Made by a program: the position numbers and the translations under genes. Below, one piece after another: positions 4,364-41,778 of a DNA stretch of 41,778 bases. The DNA comes from a virus. The first letter of the stretch is position 1, and each line of letters starts with the position of its first letter. The stretch is taken from positions 1-41,778 of IMG/VR virus record IMGVR_UViG_3300031456_000010. One strand, 5' to 3'. The notes below the pieces were generated by a model. It had not been told where the DNA came from. It did not search any database and saw only the letters and a list, made by a program, of their open reading frames with translations.

Positions 4364-4390
4364 GAAACGCAGCCTTTGGGCAAAGTTTAC
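4364..4390 (+). promoter_or_regulatory. Candidate ECF-type promoter upstream of lysis genes (GAAAC-N16-GTTTAC)
   Basis: Lies in the 4306-4430 intergenic gap. Same AAC-N16-(C)GT spacing as 22212..22239 and 26872..26899, but a weaker -10. Confidence 0.3.
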
Positions 4391-4430
4391 GGACTTTTTC
4401 GGGACATTGTGTCCCAACTAGAGGTTTCCG

Positions 4431-4604
4431 ATGGACAGCCAGATATCCGATCTGCCACAGATCATTCAGGGAGTGGGAACATCAGCGTCGGGAGTGATCA
4501 TCTTCCTCCTGTGGAGGCTAACCAAGGAAATGGGGGAACTGAAAACGGAGCTTAAGACGTTCACGGATGTGATGAGCCGCTTTGTTCCCGGAGCCAAGCC
4601 GTGA
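4431..4604 (+). CDS. Putative holin (57 aa, one TM segment)
   Basis: Below the 60-aa track cutoff: MDSQISDLPQIIQGVGTSASGVIIFLLWRLTKEMGELKTELKTFTDVMSRFVPGAKP. Hydrophobic core followed by a charged tail. The stop overlaps the endolysin GTG (GTGA at 4601-4604). Confidence 0.6.
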   Translation: MDSQISDLPQIIQGVGTSASGVIIFLLWRLTKEMGELKTELKTFTDVMSRFVPGAKP

Positions 4605-13712: not shown

Positions 13713-13813
13713 GTGCTTAACTCCGTTGTATTGAAGAAGCCGGTCGACTGTCGCTAAGAAAGCCACGGAGGAACCGTTAAAACCTCTTTCGCGGGCCTGA
13801 CCGGCTTGAGAGA

Positions 13814-13843
13814 AGTATGCACGCAGAGTGCACGCAGTGTCAA
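13814..13843 (-). promoter_or_regulatory. Sigma70-like promoter TTGACA-N18-CATACT
   Basis: Minus strand carries TTGACA at 13843..13838 and CATACT at 13819..13814, immediately after a terminator. The spacer contains the direct repeat CTGCGTGCA twice. Confidence 0.5.
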
Positions 13844-16772: not shown

Positions 16773-16815
16773 ACACAACGTGCTCGCAGTATGCGCGCGT
16801 GCTGCTCTCAAAAGC

Positions 16816-16840: not shown

Positions 16841-16955
16841 ACACGGGGGTTGGTTTCATTTTGCCTCGTTACACATCTCCTTTCATTCAACGTCTAAAGA
16901 CTCTAGCCATTTCCTGCGTGCAAGTCTAGAGTGCCTCCTCACTCGGGGGTTTTCC

Positions 16956-18953
16956 ATGTCTGATAACGTTCTACCCTTTCGCGCGTTCCATGCGCCGCGA
17001 CAGGCGCCGTCTGAATTTGTGTCCGCATCGCTCGGGCGGGAAAATGAGGACTTCGCCATTGAAGATCTCGCCAAGTCCGGCTTAACTCCCCAAAACATGA
17101 TGGTCGATGCGCATCCGCTCATCCGCCGCCGGGCCGATGCCCGCGCCGCCTATGTCATCCCTTACTTCGATCTGACGGGGCGCCCCTTGGCGAATGCGCA
17201 GGGGGAGCTGATCATGTGGCGCACCCGGATGAAGTACCCTGAGTTTCATCGCGGCACTCGCTACGATCAGCCTTCGGGGGAGCAGCTCGCCAAGTCCAAC
17301 TTACCGCCCTCGATTCCTTACATTCATCCGCGGTTCCACACGCTTAAAGGAGATGCCATTGTCTGTGCAGAAGGCGAGAAAAAAGCGGCAAGTCTCATCA
17401 AGTACCTGGGTCTGCCTACTTTCGGAATTGGTGGCTGCCAAATGTGGCGAGACCCCGCCGGTTCAGGAGAGCTACATCCATGGATCAAGAGACTATTTGA
17501 GCTACGTGGGTGTACCGAACTTATCATCGTGCCCGATGGTGATATTTTTCGATACGACATATGCAATGCATACGGCACGTTCGCTCGAGCCGCGCAAAGC
17601 GCCGGACTGTCTGTCCGCATCATCAACCCCGGTGATAAGATCGATGATGCCCTGGTTAAGTGGGGTGCAAGCGCCCTTGAGCATTGGGCTGCACTACCAC
17701 AGATCGCGGTCAGCGATCTCGTTCAATCTTCCGGTAGTCTGGTCAAGAAGTACCAGCTTAGCTTTAAGACTGACTCCCACGACCGGATCATTGTCCATCA
17801 ACATTCTTCAAATATCATGAGATTGATGGAAGAGCACCCGGCCTTTCCGAAAGTGTGGCGCAACCTCGACTCCAATCGCGTCATGATCGGGGAGGCGATC
17901 GCGCAGCCCGATGCGACCGAGATGGACATCGCGAACTACTTCCAGCACAACCTTGGGTTTGAGAAGGTGCAGCATCGCCTGATCTTCTCCTGCATCCAGG
18001 CCCTGGCGAAACGTAACGCGAAATCGCCCATGCTCAACTGGATCCGCTCACTGGTTTGGGATGGTGTGCCGCGCCTGGATGACTGGATGATCCGTCTATG
18101 GGGCGTGGAAGACAATGCCTACCACCGTGAGATCGCGGCGAAGTGGCTGATTAGCGCCTGCGCGCGGCAAGATAAGCCGGGCACCAAGATCGATTGGCTG
18201 ATGATCGTGGTGGGTCCGCAGAAGACCGGTAAGACTACGATGCCGAATATTCTCTTTCCGGGAAACTCTCTCACCCTCTATGGAGAACAGAATGACAAAG
18301 ATCTACACATGCTCCTACACTCCGCGCTGGTCGTGGGCTTTGATGAACTGGACAGTTTCAATCGCAAGGAGTCCTCCACTCTCAAAGCTATGGTCACTCG
18401 ACAAGAGGACTCCTTTCGACCCCCTTACGGCGCTTCCATTGAAGTCTTCCCCCGCCGGTTCACCCTCTACGGGTGTGGGAATCGCCATGAGTTTCTGCAT
18501 TCAGACCCGTCAGGCTATCGCCGTTACCCCGTCATCGAGGTCAAACGCCTGCTTGATTTTGCCGCGCTTGAGGCCGAGCGCGCCCAGCTGTGGGCAGAGA
18601 GCTGGGCCCGGTACAAGAGCGGCTCCTCGCGCTTCTGGGAGGTTGAGGGGGCCTCTGAGAAGAGCGCTCAGTACTCGATCTCCGACCCACTTTCGGACCA
18701 GATTCTCAACTGGGTGGCAGCGCAGTGTTTGAATAAGGCTGGGACCAACGTGCGCGACGGGGTGCTCTACTTCAACATCCCCCAGCTTCTCACGGGTCTT
18801 AATCGCGAGCATGAGATGCGCAACACGATGACGCTGCGCGATGTGGGGAACCTTCTCTGCACGCACGGCATTCGTAAAGGGGAGGGGTTAGCACCGGTAC
18901 CGGGGATGCTGGGGCGCTACTACGTCGTGTCGATCAAGCAGTTTTTTAATTAG
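16956..18953 (+). CDS. Primase-helicase: Toprim domain plus VirE/D5-like P-loop NTPase (665 aa)
   Basis: Start moved to ATG 16956 (MSDNVLPF). CAEGEKKAASL and IIVPDGD (Toprim E and DxD). Walker A GPQKTGKT and Walker B VVGFDELD. Confidence 0.88.
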   Translation: MSDNVLPFRAFHAPRQAPSEFVSASLGRENEDFAIEDLAKSGLTPQNMMVDAHPLIRRRADARAAYVIPYFDLTGRPLANAQGELIMWRTRMKYPEFHRGTRYDQPSGEQLAKSNLPPSIPYIHPRFHTLKGDAIVCAEGEKKAASLIKYLGLPTFGIGGCQMWRDPAGSGELHPWIKRLFELRGCTELIIVPDGDIFRYDICNAYGTFARAAQSAGLSVRIINPGDKIDDALVKWGASALEHWAALPQIAVSDLVQSSGSLVKKYQLSFKTDSHDRIIVHQHSSNIMRLMEEHPAFPKVWRNLDSNRVMIGEAIAQPDATEMDIANYFQHNLGFEKVQHRLIFSCIQALAKRNAKSPMLNWIRSLVWDGVPRLDDWMIRLWGVEDNAYHREIAAKWLISACARQDKPGTKIDWLMIVVGPQKTGKTTMPNILFPGNSLTLYGEQNDKDLHMLLHSALVVGFDELDSFNRKESSTLKAMVTRQEDSFRPPYGASIEVFPRRFTLYGCGNRHEFLHSDPSGYRRYPVIEVKRLLDFAALEAERAQLWAESWARYKSGSSRFWEVEGASEKSAQYSISDPLSDQILNWVAAQCLNKAGTNVRDGVLYFNIPQLLTGLNREHEMRNTMTLRDVGNLLCTHGIRKGEGLAPVPGMLGRYYVVSIKQFFN

Positions 18954-22016: not shown

Positions 22017-22181
22017 TCAATCTGCTTGTTCAGCTCTCTGATTGGCTTCGATGGTGTTGATGAGTGCGAAGACCATGCGATGAAAGCGGGTTACGCCGTG
22101 TCGGTAGTCTTTACTGAATCGGAATCCCGTCAGTTTTAAGGCCGGGGCGATCAGTTTGGCATTCAGGCTTCGCATCGTCAT
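22017..22181 (-). CDS. Hypothetical protein (54 aa; ATG 22175 also possible)
   Basis: GAGGAG SD upstream of ATG 22181/22175. Track start 22229 is a TTG inside the divergent promoter region. Confidence 0.5.
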   Translation of the reverse strand: MTMRSLNAKLIAPALKLTGFRFSKDYRHGVTRFHRMVFALINTIEANQRAEQAD

Positions 22182-22211
22182 TATCTCCTCAGTTGCTCGC
22201 AGTATGCACGC

Positions 22212-22239
22212 GGGAACTGACGCTGTCAACCCGCGTTAA
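22212..22239 (+). promoter_or_regulatory. Candidate ECF-type promoter GGGAAC-N16-CGTTAA
   Basis: AAC ends at 22217 and CGT starts at 22234. The spacer contains GACGCTGTC (22219-22227). GGGAGA SD at 22248 and ATG at 22259 follow. Confidence 0.4.
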
Positions 22240-22258
22240 TTGTGTTTGGGAGACCGAC

Positions 22259-22447
22259 ATGATCATGACGCTCATCACGCTGCTCATCTTCCTCGCCATT
22301 ATCGGGCTTGTGCTTTGGGGGATCCAGCAGATTCCCGGCATCCCGGCGATCGTCAAGACGATCATCTACATTATCGCCGGGATCCTTCTCTTACTCTGGC
22401 TGTTGAACGCCGTTCAACAGCATGGCTCGCTTTCGCTAGAAGGGTGA
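22259..22447 (+). CDS. Two-TM hydrophobic peptide (62 aa), antisense to the early operon
   Basis: ATG 22259 preceded by a GGGAGA SD. MIMTLITLLIFLAIIGLVLWGIQQIPGIPAIVKTIIYIIAGILLLLWLLNAVQQHGSLSLEG. Confidence 0.65.
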   Translation: MIMTLITLLIFLAIIGLVLWGIQQIPGIPAIVKTIIYIIAGILLLLWLLNAVQQHGSLSLEG

Positions 22448-22821: not shown

Positions 22822-22988
22822 TGAATCGCTGCCGCGTAGTTGATGGCGATTTGCAGCTGCTCGATCGCCATCCCAACGCGAGCGCGGTTGGGGCCGATCA
22901 GCTGCATCTGAATGATCTCAAGCTTTCGCTCGGCCTGCTTTAAGTCGTGCAGGGCCTCTTGGATGTCGATCCGGTCGGTGTCTGTCAT
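22818..22988 (-). CDS. Coiled-coil small protein (56 aa) overlapping the sigma factor 3' end
   Basis: Below track cutoff. GGAGAC SD with 6-nt spacer before ATG 22988. MTDTDRIDIQEALHDLKQAERKLEIIQMQL... Confidence 0.5.
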   Translation of the reverse strand: MTDTDRIDIQEALHDLKQAERKLEIIQMQLIGPNRARVGMAIEQLQIAINYAAAIQ

Positions 22989-23448
22989 GTCTTAGTCTCC
23001 CTTTGGCTTGTGTGAGGTACTTTTTGATCATCGATTCGGAGAGGTGGAACTGGGTCGCGATCTCGGAATAGGTGTACTCCTCGAGTGCATGCATCTCAAA
23101 AATGCGCTGACACTTGGGGGAGAGATGAGCGATTAATGCGAGTATCTCGCCGATCGTCTGCTCTCGTTCCAATTCCTCTTGTGGAGTTGCGGAGTGATCG
23201 AGCAGCTGCGCCAGCGCGAGAGGGTCGTTCCTCGGCGCTTTGTGCTGGCCATGCTCCCAAATGAGGTGCTTGGCGACCGTGTAGGCGTAGTAGGCCGGCT
23301 CCCGGATATCCCGGCTGGATTGGAGGATGCGGACATAGGTGTCTTGGAGGAGGTCCTCCACGTCTGCCCGGCGCATGCGCTTGCCCAGACGGTCCATGAG
23401 CTTGTGGCGCTGCGCATGGACTGCCTGCACTGCCGCGCGCCGGTTCAT
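22918..23448 (-). CDS. ECF-type (group 4) sigma-70 family sigma factor (176 aa)
   Basis: Start at ATG 23448 (ATGA overlap upstream). Region 2: ADVEDLLQDTYVRIL..EPAYYAYTVAKHLIWEH. Region 4 HTH: LSPKCQRIFEMHALEEYTYSEIATQFHLSESMIKKYLTQAKGRL. Confidence 0.85.
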   Translation of the reverse strand: MNRRAAVQAVHAQRHKLMDRLGKRMRRADVEDLLQDTYVRILQSSRDIREPAYYAYTVAKHLIWEHGQHKAPRNDPLALAQLLDHSATPQEELEREQTIGEILALIAHLSPKCQRIFEMHALEEYTYSEIATQFHLSESMIKKYLTQAKGRLRHDRHRPDRHPRGPARLKAGRAKA

Positions 23449-23597: not shown

Positions 23598-23776
23598 GCG
23601 GCGATAGCCTCTTCAATCATGAGGGGGGCGAAATGCTCGTGCAGTCTTTGATGCTCACTGTCGGAGATCTCGTGGCTTGCCCACATGCTGTCGAGGATTT
23701 CTTGAGTCGTGGCGGCGGTGATGCGCCGACGAGATTCGATACGGGCGATTAACTTGTCCATGCGCGCAGTGTGCAC
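23594..23776 (-). CDS. Hypothetical protein (60 aa; GTG 23776 or ATG 23761)
   Basis: Track ORF with helical composition. No clear SD. Confidence 0.55.
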   Translation of the reverse strand: MHTARMDKLIARIESRRRITAATTQEILDSMWASHEISDSEHQRLHEHFAPLMIEEAIAA

Positions 23777-23792
23777 GCGGGGATGAGGGGCG

Positions 23793-24578
23793 TCAAGCTT
23801 TTCTCCATCGTTTCCAGCTGGGGTCGAAGGTGTAACCGGATTGGTAGAGAAAGGCTAGCGCGCGCTGCCAGTCTTCTTTAGAGGGGCGGCGGGCGTTGTT
23901 GAGGAGTTGAAATTGGTAGGTCGTGAAGGCGGGGCCGGGAAGTTGCCATTGGCCGGTGATTTGGGCGGGGAGACTTCCGCGGACATTGGGCAGTGCGTAT
24001 TTGGACGTGCCGGCGATCTTTAATGCGCCCTTGGCGCGCAGATAGTTTTGTGCCCATTGGTAGTTCTCGGGGGTGAGCCGCATGGCATTGGCGTCGAGCA
24101 AGTTAGTGACGTTAAAGGCGCCGGGGGGAACTCGAATGTGTTTTGGATTAGAGGGTTTAGGCAAGGGGCGCTTCGTATATTGGCGTTTCTGCATTTTATA
24201 GGACCAATACTCGTAGTTATGGCGGGGGCGGAGGCCGCGGGAACGCATGATCTTATGGAACTGGTTAATCTTCGCTATATTTTCCAGGCTCCGATTAGCC
24301 TCATTTATAGGCAAAACACCCGGAAAATACATCGAGATAAAAGAGTTAATGGTGTAAATACGCTTAGATTCGGGGTCGTTATTTCGAGATATTTTTTCGT
24401 CGATCCAGTACTCACACAGACCTTGGACTCGCTCGCGGACGAAGCCGAGGTCTGTAAGTCTATGACGTAGATAGGTAAATTGCCTGTGGGAGGGTTTGGC
24501 AATGCCGTGTGCGCGGAAGAGCGACGTCAGCTCGAAGGCGAGGTCCCGGGGAGGAGTAAGGGCCTGATAATTAAGCAT
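23793..24578 (-). CDS. Basic 261-aa protein, first gene of the leftward early operon, adjacent to the iteron region
   Basis: Long ORF, Lys/Arg/Trp/Tyr-rich. No motif recognised and no SD before the ATG. Confidence 0.8.
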   Translation of the reverse strand: MLNYQALTPPRDLAFELTSLFRAHGIAKPSHRQFTYLRHRLTDLGFVRERVQGLCEYWIDEKISRNNDPESKRIYTINSFISMYFPGVLPINEANRSLENIAKINQFHKIMRSRGLRPRHNYEYWSYKMQKRQYTKRPLPKPSNPKHIRVPPGAFNVTNLLDANAMRLTPENYQWAQNYLRAKGALKIAGTSKYALPNVRGSLPAQITGQWQLPGPAFTTYQFQLLNNARRPSKEDWQRALAFLYQSGYTFDPSWKRWRKA

Positions 24579-24783
24579 GTTTGCAGGTAATCATTTGAGT
24601 GGAATAGATACGTAGATGTAAGTGTCTGATTAATATCGATAGATTGGAGTATACTATGTAAGCAGATAAAGATATATATCTAACAAGAATAGCTACTAGT
24701 AGGTGTACAGTAGTGAAATTCTATAGAGAGTTTGAGAGAAAGATCCGCTTGCATACGAAGCATTGATTCTAAAGGGAAAAAAG

Positions 24784-24799
24784 CACTTTTCGAAAAGTG
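24784..24799. repeat. Perfect 16-bp palindrome CACTTTTCGAAAAGTG (operator-like)
   Basis: Read directly. Shorter palindromes lie nearby: CGCTATAGCG at 24822-24831 and CTCTCGAGAG at 24985-24994. Confidence 0.9.
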
Positions 24800-24885
24800 A
24801 ACACGTGCCTGCGCTATAGCGACCCCTTTGGCGGCTGATCCGGGGTTATCTCCGATAAGGATCTTGGCCCTCAACTAGAGATGTC

Positions 24886-24975
24886 GACCCTCAATAGGAA
24901 GGGAGGATCGCTGTTGACCCTCAATAGGAAGGGAGAACCCTCAATAGGAAGGGAGAACCCTCAATAGGAAGGGGG
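24886..24975 (+). repeat. Four direct 20-bp iterons (G/A)ACCCTCAATAGGAAGGG(A/G)G
   Basis: Copies at 24886-24905, 24916-24935, 24936-24955 and 24956-24975, with start spacing 30, 20, 20 bp. A degenerate copy GGCCCTCAACTAGAG lies at 24866-24880. Confidence 0.9.
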
Positions 24976-25018
24976 GGTTCCCGTCTCTCGAGAGCGCCCT
25001 CTTCGATTAACGTGGATT

Positions 25019-25202
25019 TAACTTAGTTCCGACTTAACTTAATCTTCGTTGATCTAACTTAATGCATACAGCGCTGTATGCATTAAGTTAACTAACAGCT
25101 GTATAAACATTATGTAAAACTATAAGTAGCTGAAAAGATTATCTCTGCACTGCACCATGCGCATAATAACCATTAAGTTAAATAGCTCGTTATGTTAAGT
25201 TA
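25019..25202. repeat. Six TAACTTA / TAAGTTA boxes in AT-rich DNA
   Basis: Direct copies at 25019, 25035 and 25055; inverted copies at 25084, 25174 and 25196. The 10-mer CATTAAGTTA occurs at 25081 and 25171, with its complement at 25055. Confidence 0.85.
25055..25090. repeat. Perfect 36-bp palindrome TAACTTAATGCATACAGC|GCTGTATGCATTAAGTTA
   Basis: Read directly; the two 18-nt halves are exact reverse complements. Confidence 0.95.
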
Positions 25203-25360
25203 GCTGTATTTTGGCCCCCGCCGGGGTGTTTTCCAGGGAAGCGAAAAAGCTATACTCGACCCACCCACGTAATCTTTTAAAAAATTAACTTTGCGCTCAG
25301 GAGATATTGTTTTTGACTAAAACACTTGCGCGCAGAGTGCGCGCCGTGTAGGATTGAAGA

Positions 25361-25594
25361 ATGAAAACTAAATCATTTAAAGTAACGCTGCCCATTTGCG
25401 GATACGCCTCCGCAGCAGATCTGGAAAAATACGTTAGGGATGCCGTAATAGGTTGGTGCGGCCAGTACACGGGGGATTTGGATGACTGGCGCGACGAACT
25501 CGCAGATAACCGGAGTAAGATAAAAGTTACGCGGCTGAATTGCGTTCGAACAAAACGCCATGAAAAGAGAAGTGAGTCGACTGAATCGACCTAA
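25361..25594 (+). CDS. Hypothetical protein (77 aa)
   Basis: ATG preceded by AGGA. Isolated rightward gene between the control region and the leftward HNH cassette. Confidence 0.55.
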   Translation: MKTKSFKVTLPICGYASAADLEKYVRDAVIGWCGQYTGDLDDWRDELADNRSKIKVTRLNCVRTKRHEKRSESTEST

Positions 25595-26442: not shown

Positions 26443-26681
26443 GAGTTGAGAGGCGGTGCGGCTCGTTTTCGAAGTACGATGTTTGCCGCATCGCGTAGAA
26501 AACGAACGATGACGGACGGCTTCTCAAGATTGGAAGTGACGATATGCTCCCCGATGCGGGCCGCAGGCACGATGAGAAGGATGTAGCCCATTCGCTCCCC
26601 GGCGGCCTCCGAAAGAGCCTGATCGAGCGCATTTTGAATGGCGTCAAGGTGAGTAAGCACCCGTTGATCGACTTCATGCAT
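26439..26681 (-). CDS. Hypothetical protein (80 aa)
   Basis: Track ORF. ATGA overlap downstream. Confidence 0.6.
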   Translation of the reverse strand: MHEVDQRVLTHLDAIQNALDQALSEAAGERMGYILLIVPAARIGEHIVTSNLEKPSVIVRFLRDAANIVLRKRAAPPLNS

Positions 26682-26892
26682 CGTTGTCTCCCCAAATTTT
26701 CGGAATAAAACGAGACTTGGCCTCGATCAGCTCGCGCCAGTCTTGTCGCACCGCGTAGCGGTCGCTACCGGCCACAGCGCCCGACATCTCGACGATTTGC
26801 GCCGCCGTCAGACCCCGAATCGGGGCCGGGTAGCTCTTGATTTTGATCAAGGGCACTGCTTTGTGTTTCTTAAAAACGCGACGCTGTCTCAT
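26674..26892 (-). CDS. Hypothetical protein (72 aa)
   Basis: Start moved to ATG 26892 (MRQRRVFKKHK). The upstream part of the track ORF covers the divergent promoter region. Confidence 0.6.
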   Translation of the reverse strand: MRQRRVFKKHKAVPLIKIKSYPAPIRGLTAAQIVEMSGAVAGSDRYAVRQDWRELIEAKSRFIPKIWGDNDA

Positions 26893-26899
26893 GCGTGCA
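26872..26899 (+). promoter_or_regulatory. Candidate ECF-type late promoter AAAAAC-N16-CGTGCA upstream of the terminase genes
   Basis: AAC ends at 26877 and CGT starts at 26894. The spacer contains GACGCTGTC (26880-26888), identical to the 9-mer at 22219-22227. The TerS-like ATG at 26949 lies ~50 nt downstream. Confidence 0.4.
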
Positions 26900-26948
26900 T
26901 TCTGCGCGCAAATAGACGGCAGGGCAACCCCAAGATACACTGCAGAAG

Positions 26949-27350
26949 ATGGAAACCCTGCCCAAAGAGTGCCCGTTCGAAGAGACGATCGAGGATTACG
27001 CACAGAGCATGGATTATTTGCTCTCTGACACGGCCGTGGAATGTCAAGAGATCAACAAGAAGCCGAAGAAGGCGCACCGCAATACACGGCTGCTCGATGC
27101 GATACAGGAAACCTTCGAGATCATCGGAGGGGTGCCACGGATGGCCATTTGGGCGGATCAGTATCCCGGAGATTTCTACAAACTCGTCGGCAAACAGATT
27201 CCCGGCATGGTTCAGCAGCTCAATTTCAACGGCCCGACGCAGATCAATATTCAACCCGCCCTACCTCGGAGTGCGCTCGATGGTGAAAGTGACGAAACAA
27301 CGCATGCAGGTGCCCATCGGCTCCTCGACGCCGATCCCCGTGAGCTATGA
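26949..27350 (+). CDS. Putative terminase small subunit (133 aa)
   Basis: First gene of the rightward block, upstream of TerL. The RMAIWADQYPGDFYKLVGKQIP segment recalls podovirus TerS-like proteins. Assignment is mainly positional. Confidence 0.55.
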   Translation: METLPKECPFEETIEDYAQSMDYLLSDTAVECQEINKKPKKAHRNTRLLDAIQETFEIIGGVPRMAIWADQYPGDFYKLVGKQIPGMVQQLNFNGPTQINIQPALPRSALDGESDETTHAGAHRLLDADPREL

Positions 27351-27582
27351 GGAGGACTTGCCCGAGCATGAGTATCGGCACGGACCCAATCCGAACCTCG
27401 ATCTGTGCGAGTGCGGCGAGCCGCTGATGAGCCCGGTGCACCCTCGTCCGCGACTTGAGCTGACTGTCGCCGATGGCGCCGATACGCAGGAGCTGAAGCA
27501 GGCACTCGAGGATGCATTTGACGAAACGGCGGGAACCCAAGATACTCCCGCGAGCAAACCGAGAAATCATCGTAAGAGGTAG
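27280..27582 (+). CDS. Hypothetical protein (100 aa), overlaps the TerS-like ORF by 71 nt
   Basis: C-terminal part of track ORF 26743..27582, taken from ATG 27280 (ATG 27304 also possible). Acidic, protein-like composition. Confidence 0.5.
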   Translation: MVKVTKQRMQVPIGSSTPIPVSYEEDLPEHEYRHGPNPNLDLCECGEPLMSPVHPRPRLELTVADGADTQELKQALEDAFDETAGTQDTPASKPRNHRKR

Positions 27583-27637: not shown

Positions 27638-29038
27638 GTGCGGCTCGAGTATGAGCCGCGCCCGGCCTTCCAAGCCTTTCACGCTCGTTGGCAACGTTTT
27701 GCGCTGATGGTGTGTCATCGCCGCGCGGGGAAGACAGTCGGGGCCATCAATGAGGCGATCAACCGGGCGGTCTACAACAAAAATAAGCGCCCCCGCTATG
27801 CCTATATCGCGCCCTTGCGATCTCAGGCGAAGAAAGTCGTGTGGGAGTACGTCAAGGAGTACACCGCAGGCTTAGAGGCGAAGAAGCCGTCTGAATCGGA
27901 GCTGACGGTCACCTACGCACACAACGGCGCGACGATTGAGCTGTTTGGTGCGGACGGACCCAACGCGGAGGCCATGCGCGGCAATTACTTCGACGGGGTC
28001 GTCGTCGATGAGTACGGCGACATGGCCCCGTCTGTCTTGCCGAAAATCATTATCCCTACGCTAACTGACCGCAAAGGTTGGGCCGTGCTGATCGGGACGT
28101 TCAAGGGGAAAAACCACTTTTATAAAATGTCGGAGAACTACCAAGGGCGCATGCTGCCCCCGGATATCGATCCGATTGAGTTTGTGCGTCAGCGCTATCA
28201 CATGATCCTACGCGCGGATCAGTCCGGGATCATCCCTGCTGAGGAGCTGGCCTTTATCCGCACGCAGCTGGAGGACGAAGAGTACCGACAAGAGTACCTA
28301 TGCGACCCCACGGCGGCGATTAAGGGCACGTACTACGCGGCAACGATCGCCAAACTCGAAGGCGCCGGCCAGATTTACTCGGACCTCGCCGAGTACGACC
28401 CCGATCAGGAGGTGGAGTGCGTTTTCGACATCGGCCGCACCGATGGCACAGCCTGCTGGTTTTGGCAGAAACGACCCGGTGGGGTTGCCCTCGTCGACTA
28501 CTTCGAGATGCAGGGCAAGGGGTGCGATGAGGCGTTCCAAGAGCTGAATGGCACGGTACCGGATGGCAGTGTGGACTATCGGCGCAAGTACGCCTATCGG
28601 AAGATCTGGTTGCCACACGATGCCAAGGCGAAAACCTTTGCGTCGCGCCGCTCCACGATTGAGCAGTTTTTGGATGAGTACGGGCCTTCGGTGGTCCAAA
28701 TCGTGCCGAAACTAGATCTGATCGATGGTATTTCCGCTGTACGCAAGGTTTTGCCGATGTGCTACTTTAGCCCGCGGTCGACGGATGGAGTGGAAGGGTT
28801 ACGCGCCTACCAACGCGAGTGGGACGAGGAGAAGAAGGTCTTCTCGAATAACCCGCTGCACAACTGGGCGAGCCATCCTTCGGACAGCTTTCGCTACTTC
28901 GCCATCGTGGCGCAGCCTTTTGTGGTGGAGGATAAGAAGCCGGAGAAGCGACGCATTATCATCCCGAACGCTGGGACGCTCGATGAGCTGTTTGCAGAGC
29001 ACGATAAACGCATGAGAATGTTACGGAGACGTGGATGA
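27638..29038 (+). CDS. Terminase large subunit (466 aa)
   Basis: GTG start. Walker A CHRRAGKT, Walker B GVVVDEYGD, and nuclease-domain motifs FDIGRTDGTACWFWQ and LPHDA. Confidence 0.9.
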   Translation: MRLEYEPRPAFQAFHARWQRFALMVCHRRAGKTVGAINEAINRAVYNKNKRPRYAYIAPLRSQAKKVVWEYVKEYTAGLEAKKPSESELTVTYAHNGATIELFGADGPNAEAMRGNYFDGVVVDEYGDMAPSVLPKIIIPTLTDRKGWAVLIGTFKGKNHFYKMSENYQGRMLPPDIDPIEFVRQRYHMILRADQSGIIPAEELAFIRTQLEDEEYRQEYLCDPTAAIKGTYYAATIAKLEGAGQIYSDLAEYDPDQEVECVFDIGRTDGTACWFWQKRPGGVALVDYFEMQGKGCDEAFQELNGTVPDGSVDYRRKYAYRKIWLPHDAKAKTFASRRSTIEQFLDEYGPSVVQIVPKLDLIDGISAVRKVLPMCYFSPRSTDGVEGLRAYQREWDEEKKVFSNNPLHNWASHPSDSFRYFAIVAQPFVVEDKKPEKRRIIIPNAGTLDELFAEHDKRMRMLRRRG

Positions 29039-30390
29039 CGGATGTCAGTTGGCTGAATCGCTCGACCGGGTCGGTTGCAGCGAATCAAAGTAACCCCATT
29101 CCAGCGGCACTCTACGCAGGCACAACGCCGCTTTTATCCGATCAGCTCGGGCGGCTCGTCACGGGCACGGATAGCGAGCTGTTTTTTGATCAGGTCGACG
29201 GCACAGCGGTCGACATCCGTAAGTGGGCACAGACCGTCACGACCATGACGATTGCGCAAGCTTCAGGACTGATCACACTCAATTCTGGAGCCGTCACGAC
29301 GGCGAATGCGGTTGCGCGTTTGTCGTCGGTTAAATCGTTTCAGCTGTATGGCGACGTTCCGGTGGCCTGCGTGCTCGGCTTCGGCACCAACGTAGGTCCA
29401 CAAGCCAACGCCGTGATCGAGGCCGGCTTCATCGTTGCGACGGGGGTCACAGCCCCGACGGATGGGGTCTTTTTGCGGCTGTCGGCGGCGGGCCTTCAAG
29501 GCGTCATCAACTTCAACGGAGTGGAGACGACCGGGAGTTTTATCAACGTCCTCACCGGACAGGCGTATACCTGGATCCCCAGTGTTCAGCACACGATCTA
29601 TGTCGTGATCGCAGGCCCCACCTCGATTCAGTTCATCATCGATCAAACCGGGGTCTGTGCGATCACGGTCCCTTCAACGCAGCCTTTCGCGACTTCTAGC
29701 TCGCGGTTGCCGGTGACCTACCGCACCTACAACGCAGCGACGCCGCCTGCAACGGCGCCGCAGATCTTAGTCGGGCGGACCAACGTGGCGCAGGGCACCT
29801 ATCCGATGTCGCGCAACTGGGAGAGCATGCTCGTCCAGATTGGCAACGGATTTTGGCAATCGCCTGTTGCAACTTTTGCTCAGACGGCCAATCACACGAA
29901 TTCCACCGATCCAGTCAGCGCGACGCTGGCCAATGCGACGGCAGGCTACGCCACTCTCGGCGGACGGTTTCAGTTTGCCGCGGTCGCGGGCGCCGTGACG
30001 GACTACGCACTCTTTGGCTACCAAGTTCCCGCAGGTCAGCAATTAAGTCTGACGAGCATGGCGATCAGTACTGTAAACCTCGGTGCGGTGGTCGCGGTGA
30101 CACCGACCGTGCTGGACTGGGGCATTGGGCTCAATGCCAGTGCCGTGTCGTTGGCGACCGCGGATGGAGTCGGTACGTGGGCCCCGCGACGGGTGCCGTT
30201 AGCAATTCAAAGTTTCCCGGTAGCGGCCGGAATCGGCGCCTCCGTGCCCGATATCTTCCGACTGTTTCCGGAGACCGTTGTCGTGGATGGCGGGCGCTTT
30301 CTGCACGTGATTCTGCAGATTCCCGTGGGCACCGCAACCGTCGGGCAGATCATTCGCGGTGATGTGAGCTTTACGGGTTGGTACGAGTGA
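29035..30390 (+). CDS. Beta-rich 451-aa protein of unknown function between TerL and portal
   Basis: ATGA overlap with the TerL stop, and its own stop overlaps the portal start. Val/Thr/Gly/Ala-rich with almost no charged runs. The two halves have similar composition. Confidence 0.8.
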   Translation: MTDVSWLNRSTGSVAANQSNPIPAALYAGTTPLLSDQLGRLVTGTDSELFFDQVDGTAVDIRKWAQTVTTMTIAQASGLITLNSGAVTTANAVARLSSVKSFQLYGDVPVACVLGFGTNVGPQANAVIEAGFIVATGVTAPTDGVFLRLSAAGLQGVINFNGVETTGSFINVLTGQAYTWIPSVQHTIYVVIAGPTSIQFIIDQTGVCAITVPSTQPFATSSSRLPVTYRTYNAATPPATAPQILVGRTNVAQGTYPMSRNWESMLVQIGNGFWQSPVATFAQTANHTNSTDPVSATLANATAGYATLGGRFQFAAVAGAVTDYALFGYQVPAGQQLSLTSMAISTVNLGAVVAVTPTVLDWGIGLNASAVSLATADGVGTWAPRRVPLAIQSFPVAAGIGASVPDIFRLFPETVVVDGGRFLHVILQIPVGTATVGQIIRGDVSFTGWYE

Positions 30391-41536: not shown

Positions 41537-41778
41537 ATGGCTGGAAGTGATCTCTATAGCGCGCTGATTGGCGCGCCCGTAGATAGCGCGGAGAAACAGG
41601 CAGCGCTTGCGGATCTTCTGCGCCGCAAGTCTGCGTTTGCCAGCGTCGCGCAGCTTTCGGGGGATCCCACACTGGCCCCTATGGGGCAGGCTCAGTCTGA
41701 GCAAGCCGGACAGCAGGCGAACCAGCTTCGGCAAGGTGCGCAGAATCAGCAGCAAGCGCTGTTCCAAAAGACGCAGGA
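41537..41778 (+). CDS. 5' portion of the wrap-around ORF (continues at base 128 / ends at 716)
   Basis: ATG 41537 is open to the window end. The frame matches 1..716 once the 127-bp overlap is collapsed. Confidence 0.8.
   Translation, partial: MAGSDLYSALIGAPVDSAEKQAALADLLRRKSAFASVAQLSGDPTLAPMGQAQSEQAGQQANQLRQGAQNQQQALFQKTQ
41652..41778. repeat. Terminal overlap copy 2 (identical to 1..127)
   Basis: Direct comparison. Confidence 0.95.

Follow-up and report, generated by a model that had tools for sequence, protein, structure and literature searches.

A candidate ECF-type promoter and a repeated 19-nt core at the divergent junctions of an uncultured ~42-kb phage genome

Introduction

The IMG/VR virus record IMGVR_UViG_3300031456_000010 is a circularly assembled phage genome of 41,778 nt (the window, which here means this whole stretch), organised in two divergent arms. 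Positions 1-127 and 41652-41778 are identical and constitute the overlap of the circular assembly; the true genome is ~41.65 kb long. The rightward late arm runs from an ATG at 26949 through TerL (27638-29038) and the capsid and tail genes, over the contig ends, to the lysis genes at ~4.4-5.9 kb. The leftward arm extends from 26892 down to ~6.1 kb and encodes DNA polymerase A, an SNF2 helicase, an exonuclease and a DUF6011 protein. Three plus-strand genes lie within this leftward arm, namely those for a primase-helicase (16956-18953), a 77-aa protein (25361-25594) and a 62-aa membrane peptide (22259-22447). The subject of this paper is the promoter of the last of these genes, together with a sequence element that recurs at the junctions between the divergent transcription units and a gene for an extracytoplasmic function (ECF) sigma factor that lies close by.

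The original prediction proposed three candidate cognate promoters for an ECF sigma factor, all pointing rightward: two with an AAC and a CGT element 16 nt apart and a shared 9-mer in the spacer, and a weaker third with the same spacing but no 9-mer. The three strings are all present as described: GGGAAC-t-GACGCTGTC-aacccg-CGTTAA at 22212-22239 (site 1), AAAAAC-gc-GACGCTGTC-tcatg-CGTGCA at 26872-26899 (site 2) and GAAAC-N16-GTTTAC at 4364-4390 (site 3). Here, we present evidence for a different reading, which we regard as reasonably probable, in which the three strings comprise one real ECF-type promoter (site 1) and two chance lookalikes, site 1 is read by an ECF sigma factor of the host, and the element common to both junctions is a 19-nt core that serves as an operator.

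The window is one of a large group of uncultured ~42-kb phages. A search with the primase-helicase recovered a large family of contigs of ~41-42 kb, the window among them; at E <= 1e-20 it matched 304 related proteins, many of which are encoded on 40-43 kb contigs. Eleven family contigs, each with 10-kb flanks (L147-L157), which share the two-arm layout, were compared with the window, as was the metagenome contig L081, which has a TerL 82% identical to that of the window, spans site 2 and first exposed the core. Coordinates of the features discussed are collected in Table 1.

Table 1. Promoter elements, core copies and associated genes in the window, with predicted assignments
Feature	Positions	Strand	Remarks
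Site 3, GAAAC-N16-GTTTAC	4364-4390	+	ECF promoter not supported
Core, three 11-nt units in tandem	13806-13835	-	Downstream of a terminator hairpin and TTGACA
Core at the primase junction	16780-16798	-	Downstream of a terminator hairpin and TTGCTT
First gene of the unit that site 1 drives leftward	22017-22181	-	Shine-Dalgarno sequence (SD) GAGGAG 22190-22185, ATG 22181; DUF6011 gene next
19-nt core GCGTGCATACTGCGAGCAA at site 1	22193-22211	-	Contains -10 CATACT (22206-22201) and predicted +1 A at 22194
-35 GGAAC, ECF-type promoter (site 1)	22213-22217	+	Kept in L147; also before peptide homologues in L158 and L188
9-mer GACGCTGTC, copy 1	22219-22227	+	Coincidental
-35 TTGACA, leftward sigma-70-like promoter	22224-22229	-	Overlaps four bases of the 9-mer
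-10 CGTT, ECF-type promoter (site 1)	22234-22237	+	16 nt past GGAAC; motif enriched before peptide genes
62-aa two-helix membrane-peptide gene	22259-22447	+	SD GGGAGA 22248-22253; would be served by site 1
Phage ECF-superfamily sigma gene	22918-23448	-	Pfam Sigma70_r2, Sigma70_r4_2; TIGR02937
Core promoter TTGACG-17-CACACT of the operon ending in the sigma gene	23760-23778	-	Core directly adjoins ATG 23761
Core in the noncoding module	25326-25344	-	On the plus strand, -35 and spacer of TTGCGC-17-TAGGAT-6-ATG (gene 25361-25594)
9-mer GACGCTGTC, copy 2	26880-26888	+	Within leftward gene 26674-26892 (codons 2-4)
19-nt core GCGTGCATTCTGCGCGCAA at site 2	26893-26911	+	Holds the CGT of site 2
P_left, leftward early promoter	26899-26927	-	-35 TTGCCC 26927-26922, 17 nt, -10 CAGAAT 26904-26899; ATG 26892 6 nt on
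P_right, rightward late promoter	26913-26941	+	-35 TAGACG 26913-26918, 17 nt, -10 TACACT 26936-26941; ATG 26949 7 nt on
terS-like first late gene	26949-27350	+	ATG at the predicted +1 of P_right

The promoter of the membrane-peptide gene

The assignment of the GGAAC-N16-CGTT string at site 1 (22213-22237) as a rightward ECF-type promoter of the peptide gene is supported, because the same motif is present in four of 43 distinct regions upstream of peptide genes against 0.02 expected, a ~200-fold excess, and none of 20,000 shuffle sets reached even three. A GGAAC -35 is followed by CGTT 16 nt on, and both elements are conserved while the spacer diverges: the relative L147 retains GGAAC-N17-CGTTTA around a spacer of different sequence. 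Transcription would be predicted to start ~6-9 nt past CGTT, ahead of the SD and the ATG.

Homologues of the peptide were found in the protein index (P0121-P0125, alignment A4) and at 44 IMG/VR loci. Within the phage family, the gene is confined to the window and L147, the only fetched relative that has it. Outside the family, it terminates the lysis operon of a phage unrelated to the window (L158-L162), and in L158 the GGAAC-N16-CGTT motif, SD and ATG follow one another within a 45-nt gap. The same arrangement recurs in an unrelated context in L188, and the spacing from the motif to SD and ATG is consistent across the window, L147, L158 and L188.

In the window, this promoter is interleaved back-to-back with a leftward sigma-70-like promoter that consists of TTGACA (22229-22224), a 17-nt spacer and CATACT (22206-22201), with its predicted start at 22194. 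With a score of 10/12, it is the top promoter-like match in the 20-28 kb region. RNA polymerase, we infer, could not sit on both promoters simultaneously.

This overlap suggests another explanation, in which the motif at site 1 is a functionless by-product of the leftward promoter, GGAAC being the complement of the pyrimidine run that precedes the core and CGTT a mere flank. In most family promoters the core is indeed preceded by yTTCC, or GGAAr on the opposite strand; the window and L147 are closely related and may share these bases by inheritance; and the motif is not enriched genome-wide. However, in L158 and L188 the motif occurs without a core in its vicinity, its excess ahead of peptide genes and the consistent distances to SD and ATG in all four cases would have no place in such an account, and the C at the fifth position is present only in the two family members that have the peptide gene. 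Among the equivalent promoters, GGAAC stands opposite the core only in these two, the others reading GGAAA, GGGAG and so on. We consider a by-product improbable.

Two further strings of this type were examined and set aside. GGAAC-N18-CGTT at 4535-4561 on the plus strand lies within the holin gene and is not kept in other relatives; GGAAC-N16-CGTT at 16966-16989 on the minus strand is antisense to the first primase codons and is found also in L148, otherwise unkept. Both are likely by-products of coding sequence.

The shared 9-mer and sites 2 and 3

The 9-mer GACGCTGTC is identical at sites 1 and 2 and occurs in the window only there, at 22219 and 26880, as had been reported. The claim that such sharing is unlikely by chance does not hold, since at least two copies of GACGCTGTC arose in 15 of 100 shuffles. 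The probability that two 100-nt windows of this genome share any 9-mer is 0.038, and it reaches 0.44 when six candidate regions are compared. When the AAC and CGT elements of the two sites are aligned, the 9-mer is offset by 1 nt, and therefore it cannot be in register at both. At site 1, four of its bases belong to the -35 of the leftward promoter (TGTCAA, the reverse complement of TTGACA), and at site 2 it corresponds to codons 2-4 (R-Q-R) of the gene read leftward from ATG 26892. It is conserved neither at site 1 (L147) nor at site 2 (L081 and nine other relatives). The wider pattern is equally unremarkable: AAC-N16-CGT was seen 22 times in the genome against 18.9 expected, with 16 of the 22 on the minus strand, and GGAAC-N15-18-CGT was seen 42 times across 267 kb of the family against 36.6 +/- 6.2 expected.

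At site 2, the proposed -35 holds AAC only, with no GGAAC, and CGTG lies 16 nt past it. AAAAAC is missing in all ten relatives, none of which has an AAC 16 nt upstream of CGT. The region codes for the leftward gene starting at ATG 26892, and the CGT (26894-26896) forms part of the 19-nt core. In the comparison with L081, the conserved block is TCATGCGTGCAT[T/A]CTGCG[C/A]GCAAAAT, and neither the 9-mer nor AAAAAC is kept.

The conserved features of this junction point instead to a pair of sigma-70-like promoters. Ten relatives share the order 19-nt core, aaTTGmCC, GTCAAsCC, TAcaCT and an ATG 6-7 nt on. The leftward early promoter, P_left, takes its -35 from the GTCAA of this layout, read on the opposite strand, as TTGACA or a close variant in nine relatives and TTGCCC in the window; its -10 (CAGAAT) sits in the core, the gene it serves is conserved, and its mRNA is probably leaderless, judging from the position of the ATG. 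The late operon would start from P_right, a separate promoter conserved in ten relatives as aaTTGmCC-N17-TAcaCT-N6/7-ATG, which is sigma-70-like and in the window lies 7 nt before ATG 26949. P_left and P_right are interleaved, the -35 of each lying within the spacer of the other.

The ATGs at 23761, 25361, 26892 and 26949 all lie 6-7 nt past a -10-like hexamer, which leaves no room for an SD, and this geometry is kept in relatives. Leaderless mRNAs thus seem to be common in this phage group.

Site 3 likewise has AAC without GGAAC, and it has no CGT, reading GTTTAC instead. In L155, which has no detectable sigma gene, the holin is conserved, GAAAC has become GAGCG and GTTTAC has become GTGTAC; the part in common is only GT[T/G]TACGGACTTTTTC. 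With the AAC lost and the CGT absent, the assignment of site 3 as an ECF promoter lacks support. The sequence before the holin gene at 4385-4400, GTTTACGGACTTTTTC, is conserved in L155 in the form GTGTACGGACTTTTTC.

That the phage sigma factor reads all three sites, with the 9-mer as part of its recognition sequence, and so drives the peptide gene, the late operon and the lysis genes, was suggested by the existence of an ECF-superfamily sigma gene in the phage, by AAC-N16-CGT strings ahead of rightward genes at sites 1 and 2 and, as now seen, by the conservation of site 1. This proposal is hardly tenable in the face of a 9-mer that is chance-compatible, unconserved and out of register, of a site 2 without conserved -35 in coding DNA and with its CGT inside the core, of the loss of the AAC of site 3 in L155 and of two patterns, AAC-N16-CGT and GGAAC-N15-18-CGT, that are not enriched. 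A search for motifs in the noncoding DNA of six sigma-bearing genomes yielded no recurring AAC..CGT motif, and relatives without the sigma gene share the same late-operon head. Of the three proposed promoters, only site 1 stands, as a rightward promoter of ECF type.

The 19-nt core

The element common to both junctions is not the 9-mer but a 19-nt core, GCGYGCAYWCTGCGMGCAA, found on the minus strand of site 1 and the plus strand of site 2. The copy in L081, GCGTGCATACTGCGAGCAA, is identical to positions 22211-22193 of the window, the minus strand at site 1. With up to three mismatches allowed, GCGTGCATWCTGCGMGCAA has seven matches in the window against 0.11 expected (13806/13817, 16780, 22193, 23760 and 25326 on the minus strand, 26893 on the plus strand), and each relative has 6-10 copies. 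A looser pattern (14 fixed positions, at most one mismatch) gave 75 matches across 13 genomes, those of the window and of 12 relatives; the matches are intergenic and nearly all co-directional with the next gene. The exact core was found in IMG/VR in one unrelated contig only (L146).

The core appears to mark early and middle promoters of sigma-70 geometry. The usual order is TTGACA, 12 nt ending in yTTCC, the core, an SD and an ATG, with CATACT 17 nt from TTGACA. Among the matches to the exact skeleton, 18 of 44 have at least five of the six bases of TTGACA at 17-18 nt. In several copies, among them window 23761, L147 1910 and L150 7758, the ATG lies exactly 6 nt past CAYACT, and hence the predicted +1 is the A of GCA and the -10 is CATACT, not CGT. 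The sequence features of a sigma-70-type promoter are thus present in the family: a TTGACA-like -35, a spacer of ~17 nt, an A at -11 and a T at -7.

L153-L155 have no detectable sigma gene and keep core promoters; L153 and L154, in which the locus was reached, also keep P_right. Because relatives without the sigma gene retain it, the core would be independent of the phage sigma factor. This bears on the suggestion that the core is itself the promoter of that sigma factor, in which case the junctions would be cognate after all, though by another motif and with a leftward site 1. The conserved stretch from -17 to +2, well past what sigma-70 needs, and the 6-10 copies per genome before early and middle genes would suit this idea. 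We nevertheless give it little credence: the core promoters persist where sigma is not detectable, their TTGACA, 17-nt spacer and -11 and -7 bases are the geometry of a housekeeping sigma factor, the core is used by the sigma factor's own operon and by the first early promoter, and in L156 and in the promoters of the noncoding module it falls in the spacer or over the -35.

The core is best described as two GCGNNCA units 11 bp apart. Tandem arrays of three such units are present at 13806-13835 and at L147 1910-1938, and these triple copies fit a direct repeat with an 11-nt period. An alternative description, as a 7-3-7 inverted repeat or hairpin, was rejected on account of variants in L153 and L154 (GCGATCA twice, or GCGTTCA with GCGTACA) that break the pairing on both arms. 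As the variable dinucleotides are identical between the two units in only eight of 44 copies, the direct-repeat reading rests on the fixed GCG..CA skeleton, not on covariation.

The core keeps its sequence, but its register is variable. Most copies overlie the -10; in L156 the spacer of TTGACA-18-AAGAAT is taken up by the core, in copies in the noncoding module it coincides with the -35 and spacer of opposite-strand promoters, and at P_left it is reversed. Because its position relative to the -35 and -10 changes between promoters and between relatives, the core looks like an operator, and repeated half-sites with helical phasing are consistent with this. An operator is thus the most likely role for it, more so than a sigma element, and it would serve a phage regulator that acts jointly on all early and middle promoters. 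One family of phage proteins, p23793, encoded in the window at 23793-24578, is found in all core-bearing relatives and is absent from L157. Pfam, PHROG and PDB-profile searches of the early proteins and of the p23793 family for a core binder returned nothing, p23793 has no significant internal repeats, and its single-sequence AlphaFold model was unusable, with a predicted local distance difference test score (pLDDT) of 38.

The phage sigma factor and the reader of site 1

The phage sigma factor consists of regions 2 and 4 only (Sigma70_r2, 1.3e-5; Sigma70_r4_2, 8e-15), and its TIGR02937 score of 71.3 bits against a cut-off of 42.9 places it in the ECF group (group IV). Its best PDB match is SigL of M. 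tuberculosis (E = 0.012). Matches to sigma subfamilies are best for the PG0214 and FecI types, all far below their cut-offs, in a library that perhaps has no EcfG-specific model. By a sigma-family profile, the gene is present in the window, L147-149 and L151-152 and was not found in L153-L157, with which Pfam scans of the remaining candidates agree; it is thus an accessory gene, carried by some relatives and not found in others. Searches with the protein against IMG/VR and against a protein index of 5.8 billion entries found nothing, nor did the family profile (A7) against IMG/VR; no homologue was found in L158 or in the 44 peptide-bearing IMG/VR loci either. The sigma gene is the third in an operon that starts from the core promoter at 23761, its genes joined by ATGA overlaps. 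No ECF-type promoter lies ahead of this operon, which argues against autoregulation of the sigma factor.

Small helix-turn-helix proteins of GerE/LuxR type (66-108 aa) have their genes close to that of the sigma factor in L148, L149 and L151, though immediately beside it in L151 only. They are also found in L153 and L157, both without the sigma gene, and none is detectable in the window.

The general-stress promoters read by EcfG (ECF15) in Alphaproteobacteria have the form GGAAC-N16-17-CGTT, and similar GGAAC/GTT motifs are read by other ECF groups. The promoters at site 1 and in L147, L158 and L188 agree exactly with this form in both elements and in spacing, and here too, as in many EcfG targets, the motif lies less than 100 nt from the start of a gene for a small hypothetical or membrane protein. 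In Sphingomonas melonis, the EcfG consensus has been given as GGAAC-N17-20-GTT (PMC6599016). The motif at site 1 appears to equal the EcfG-type consensus. It differs from the EcfG targets in standing before a phage gene, and the host of the phage may not be an alphaproteobacterium.

An ECF sigma factor of the host is the more likely reader of site 1, rather than that of the phage, because the motif equals the EcfG consensus and travels with the peptide gene into phages in which no homologue of the phage sigma factor was found. The description of site 1 as cognate to the phage sigma factor fits poorly with these phages, with the absence of any such motif from sigma-bearing relatives that lack the peptide gene, and with a sigma factor whose nearest subfamilies, all matched below their cut-offs, are FecI-like rather than EcfG-like. 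Nor was the pattern of a sigma regulon, a motif before several genes that co-occurs with the sigma gene, found: when the noncoding DNA of the six sigma-bearing genomes was searched exhaustively for bipartite motifs, it yielded only motifs derived from the core and from the noncoding module, and four sigma-bearing relatives are without the site 1 motif.

It may still be that the phage sigma factor reads site 1, with the peptide gene as its one or main target in the phage and possibly host genes with the motif in addition. In both the window and L147 the sigma operon lies next to the peptide gene and converges with it, within the family the peptide gene occurs only in sigma-bearing members, and regions 2 and 4 in the sigma factor lead one to expect a bipartite promoter with -35 and -10 elements. 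This is rather unlikely in our view, given four sigma-bearing relatives that have neither the peptide gene nor the motif, the promoter and gene of L158 and L188 in phages where a sigma homologue was found neither at these loci nor in IMG/VR, the FecI-like though sub-threshold affinities of the sigma factor and an operon without an ECF-type promoter of its own.

Several points weigh against a host-read promoter at site 1 combined with an operator core. Every promoter call made here stems from sequence and conservation. An EcfG-type host sigma factor is an assumption; the closest cultured relative by capsid protein infects the gammaproteobacterium Stenotrophomonas. The peptide gene adjoins the sigma operon in the window and L147, so that the phage sigma factor might read site 1 after all. 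The L158 contig is only 8.7 kb long, and the promoters of L158 and L188 may share one ancestor, so that the independent lineages may number two to three rather than four. As regards the core, the p23793 family is a candidate core-binding protein by virtue of presence and absence only, and the conservation of the 19 nt could reflect an unusual contact with RNA polymerase instead.

Comparison with other phage systems

Phage morons are accessory genes with their own promoter that are inserted between core genes. The peptide gene resembles them, being placed on the opposite strand between conserved genes, present in only two of 11 relatives and in many unrelated phages, and equipped with its own promoter. 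Unlike in a moron, this promoter is of ECF type, and its -35 in the window and L147 seems not to have been imported with the gene but to have arisen within the spacer of the leftward promoter already in place.

In the OR region of phage lambda, the divergent promoters PR and PRM share operators, each a 17-bp palindrome, and the cI mRNA made from PRM is leaderless. Both junctions of the window similarly have back-to-back promoters, a conserved repeated element between or over them and an ATG at a predicted +1. In contrast to lambda, the promoters of the window are interleaved, with starts ~57 bp apart, and the core is a direct repeat with an 11-bp period that is found at 6-10 promoters per genome; no repressor has been identified and no lysogeny genes were seen in the window.

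Divergent small sigma factors of the sigma-70 family are also encoded by other lytic phages, and in this respect the window resembles phiEco32 and 7-11. The promoter of phiEco32 gp36 is a single element, tAATGTAtA, and that of gp47 of phage 7-11, a sigma factor with region 4, is bipartite with a 16-nt spacer (GTAAtg-N16-aCTA); in both phages, six to eight cognate promoters stand before middle or late genes (PMC8948821). The window differs from them in having no repeated ECF-like motif and a late-operon head that is sigma-70-like and shared by relatives without the sigma gene.

Other features of the genome group

Neither cultured phages nor IMG/VR yielded a close relative of the window. A Megablast of the 20-28 kb region against cultured phages gave no match, TerL has relatives in IMG/VR at no more than 42% identity and three distant matches among genome contigs, and Rfam and tRNA scans of the window gave no hits. 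By its capsid protein, the closest cultured relative is Stenotrophomonas phage BUCT555 (69% identical), which has a gammaproteobacterial host, no core and no annotated sigma factor.

An AT-rich noncoding module of ~780 nt (24579-25360) is kept in seven relatives, with or without the sigma gene, and is probably a replication origin or regulatory hub. It contains 20-nt tandem iterons (24917-24973, 2.8 perfect copies, with degenerate copies to ~24880). Also present are numerous AAGTTAA/TTAACTT repeats, a TAGCTTTTTCGC block preceded by a G-run and, at 25055-25090, a perfect 36-bp palindrome. Upstream of the primase ATG (16956), at a distance of ~25 nt, lies an inverted repeat, GACTCTAGC-N17-TCTAGAGTG (16900-16933), which is conserved in L147 and L151-L154 in the form GACTCTAGCG-N13-15-CGCTAGAGT, with CTCCT ~20 nt upstream; it is a putative second regulatory element.

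Two observations concern the start of the late arm. The terS-like open reading frame (ORF) at 26949-27350 overlaps an out-of-frame ORF (27283-27582) by 68 nt, and the product of the latter resembles a real protein (64% identical in L147); the overlap may reflect a misplaced start or a frameshift. Between TerL and the portal gene, a 451-aa ORF (29035-30390) has no counterpart in L081 and no Pfam match, and L149 has a 117-aa gene in its position; it is possibly an inserted accessory gene.

Implications

A tempting but mostly wrong promoter assignment is corrected here, and in its place stands a testable transcription map of the group, with six core promoter loci, two interleaved divergent junctions and several probably leaderless genes. 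A bolder, joint proposal, which we put forward only tentatively and would not expect to hold in full, is that the peptide gene moves between unrelated phages under an EcfG-like promoter and that the 19-nt core is the operator for a genome-wide early-to-late switch. If this were true, the -35 of the peptide promoter would have been built, in this family, inside the spacer of a resident early promoter; expression of the peptide and early leftward transcription would be mutually exclusive and would respond either to stress in the host or to the unregulated ECF sigma factor of the phage itself; and the regulator that binds the core would govern every early and middle promoter as well as the interleaved, leaderless pair at 26892/26949.

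As for the peptide itself, a widespread phage membrane peptide would have acquired or kept a promoter of stress-sigma type in at least two, probably three, lineages, which suggests that accessory genes of phages can be wired into the stress signalling of their hosts.

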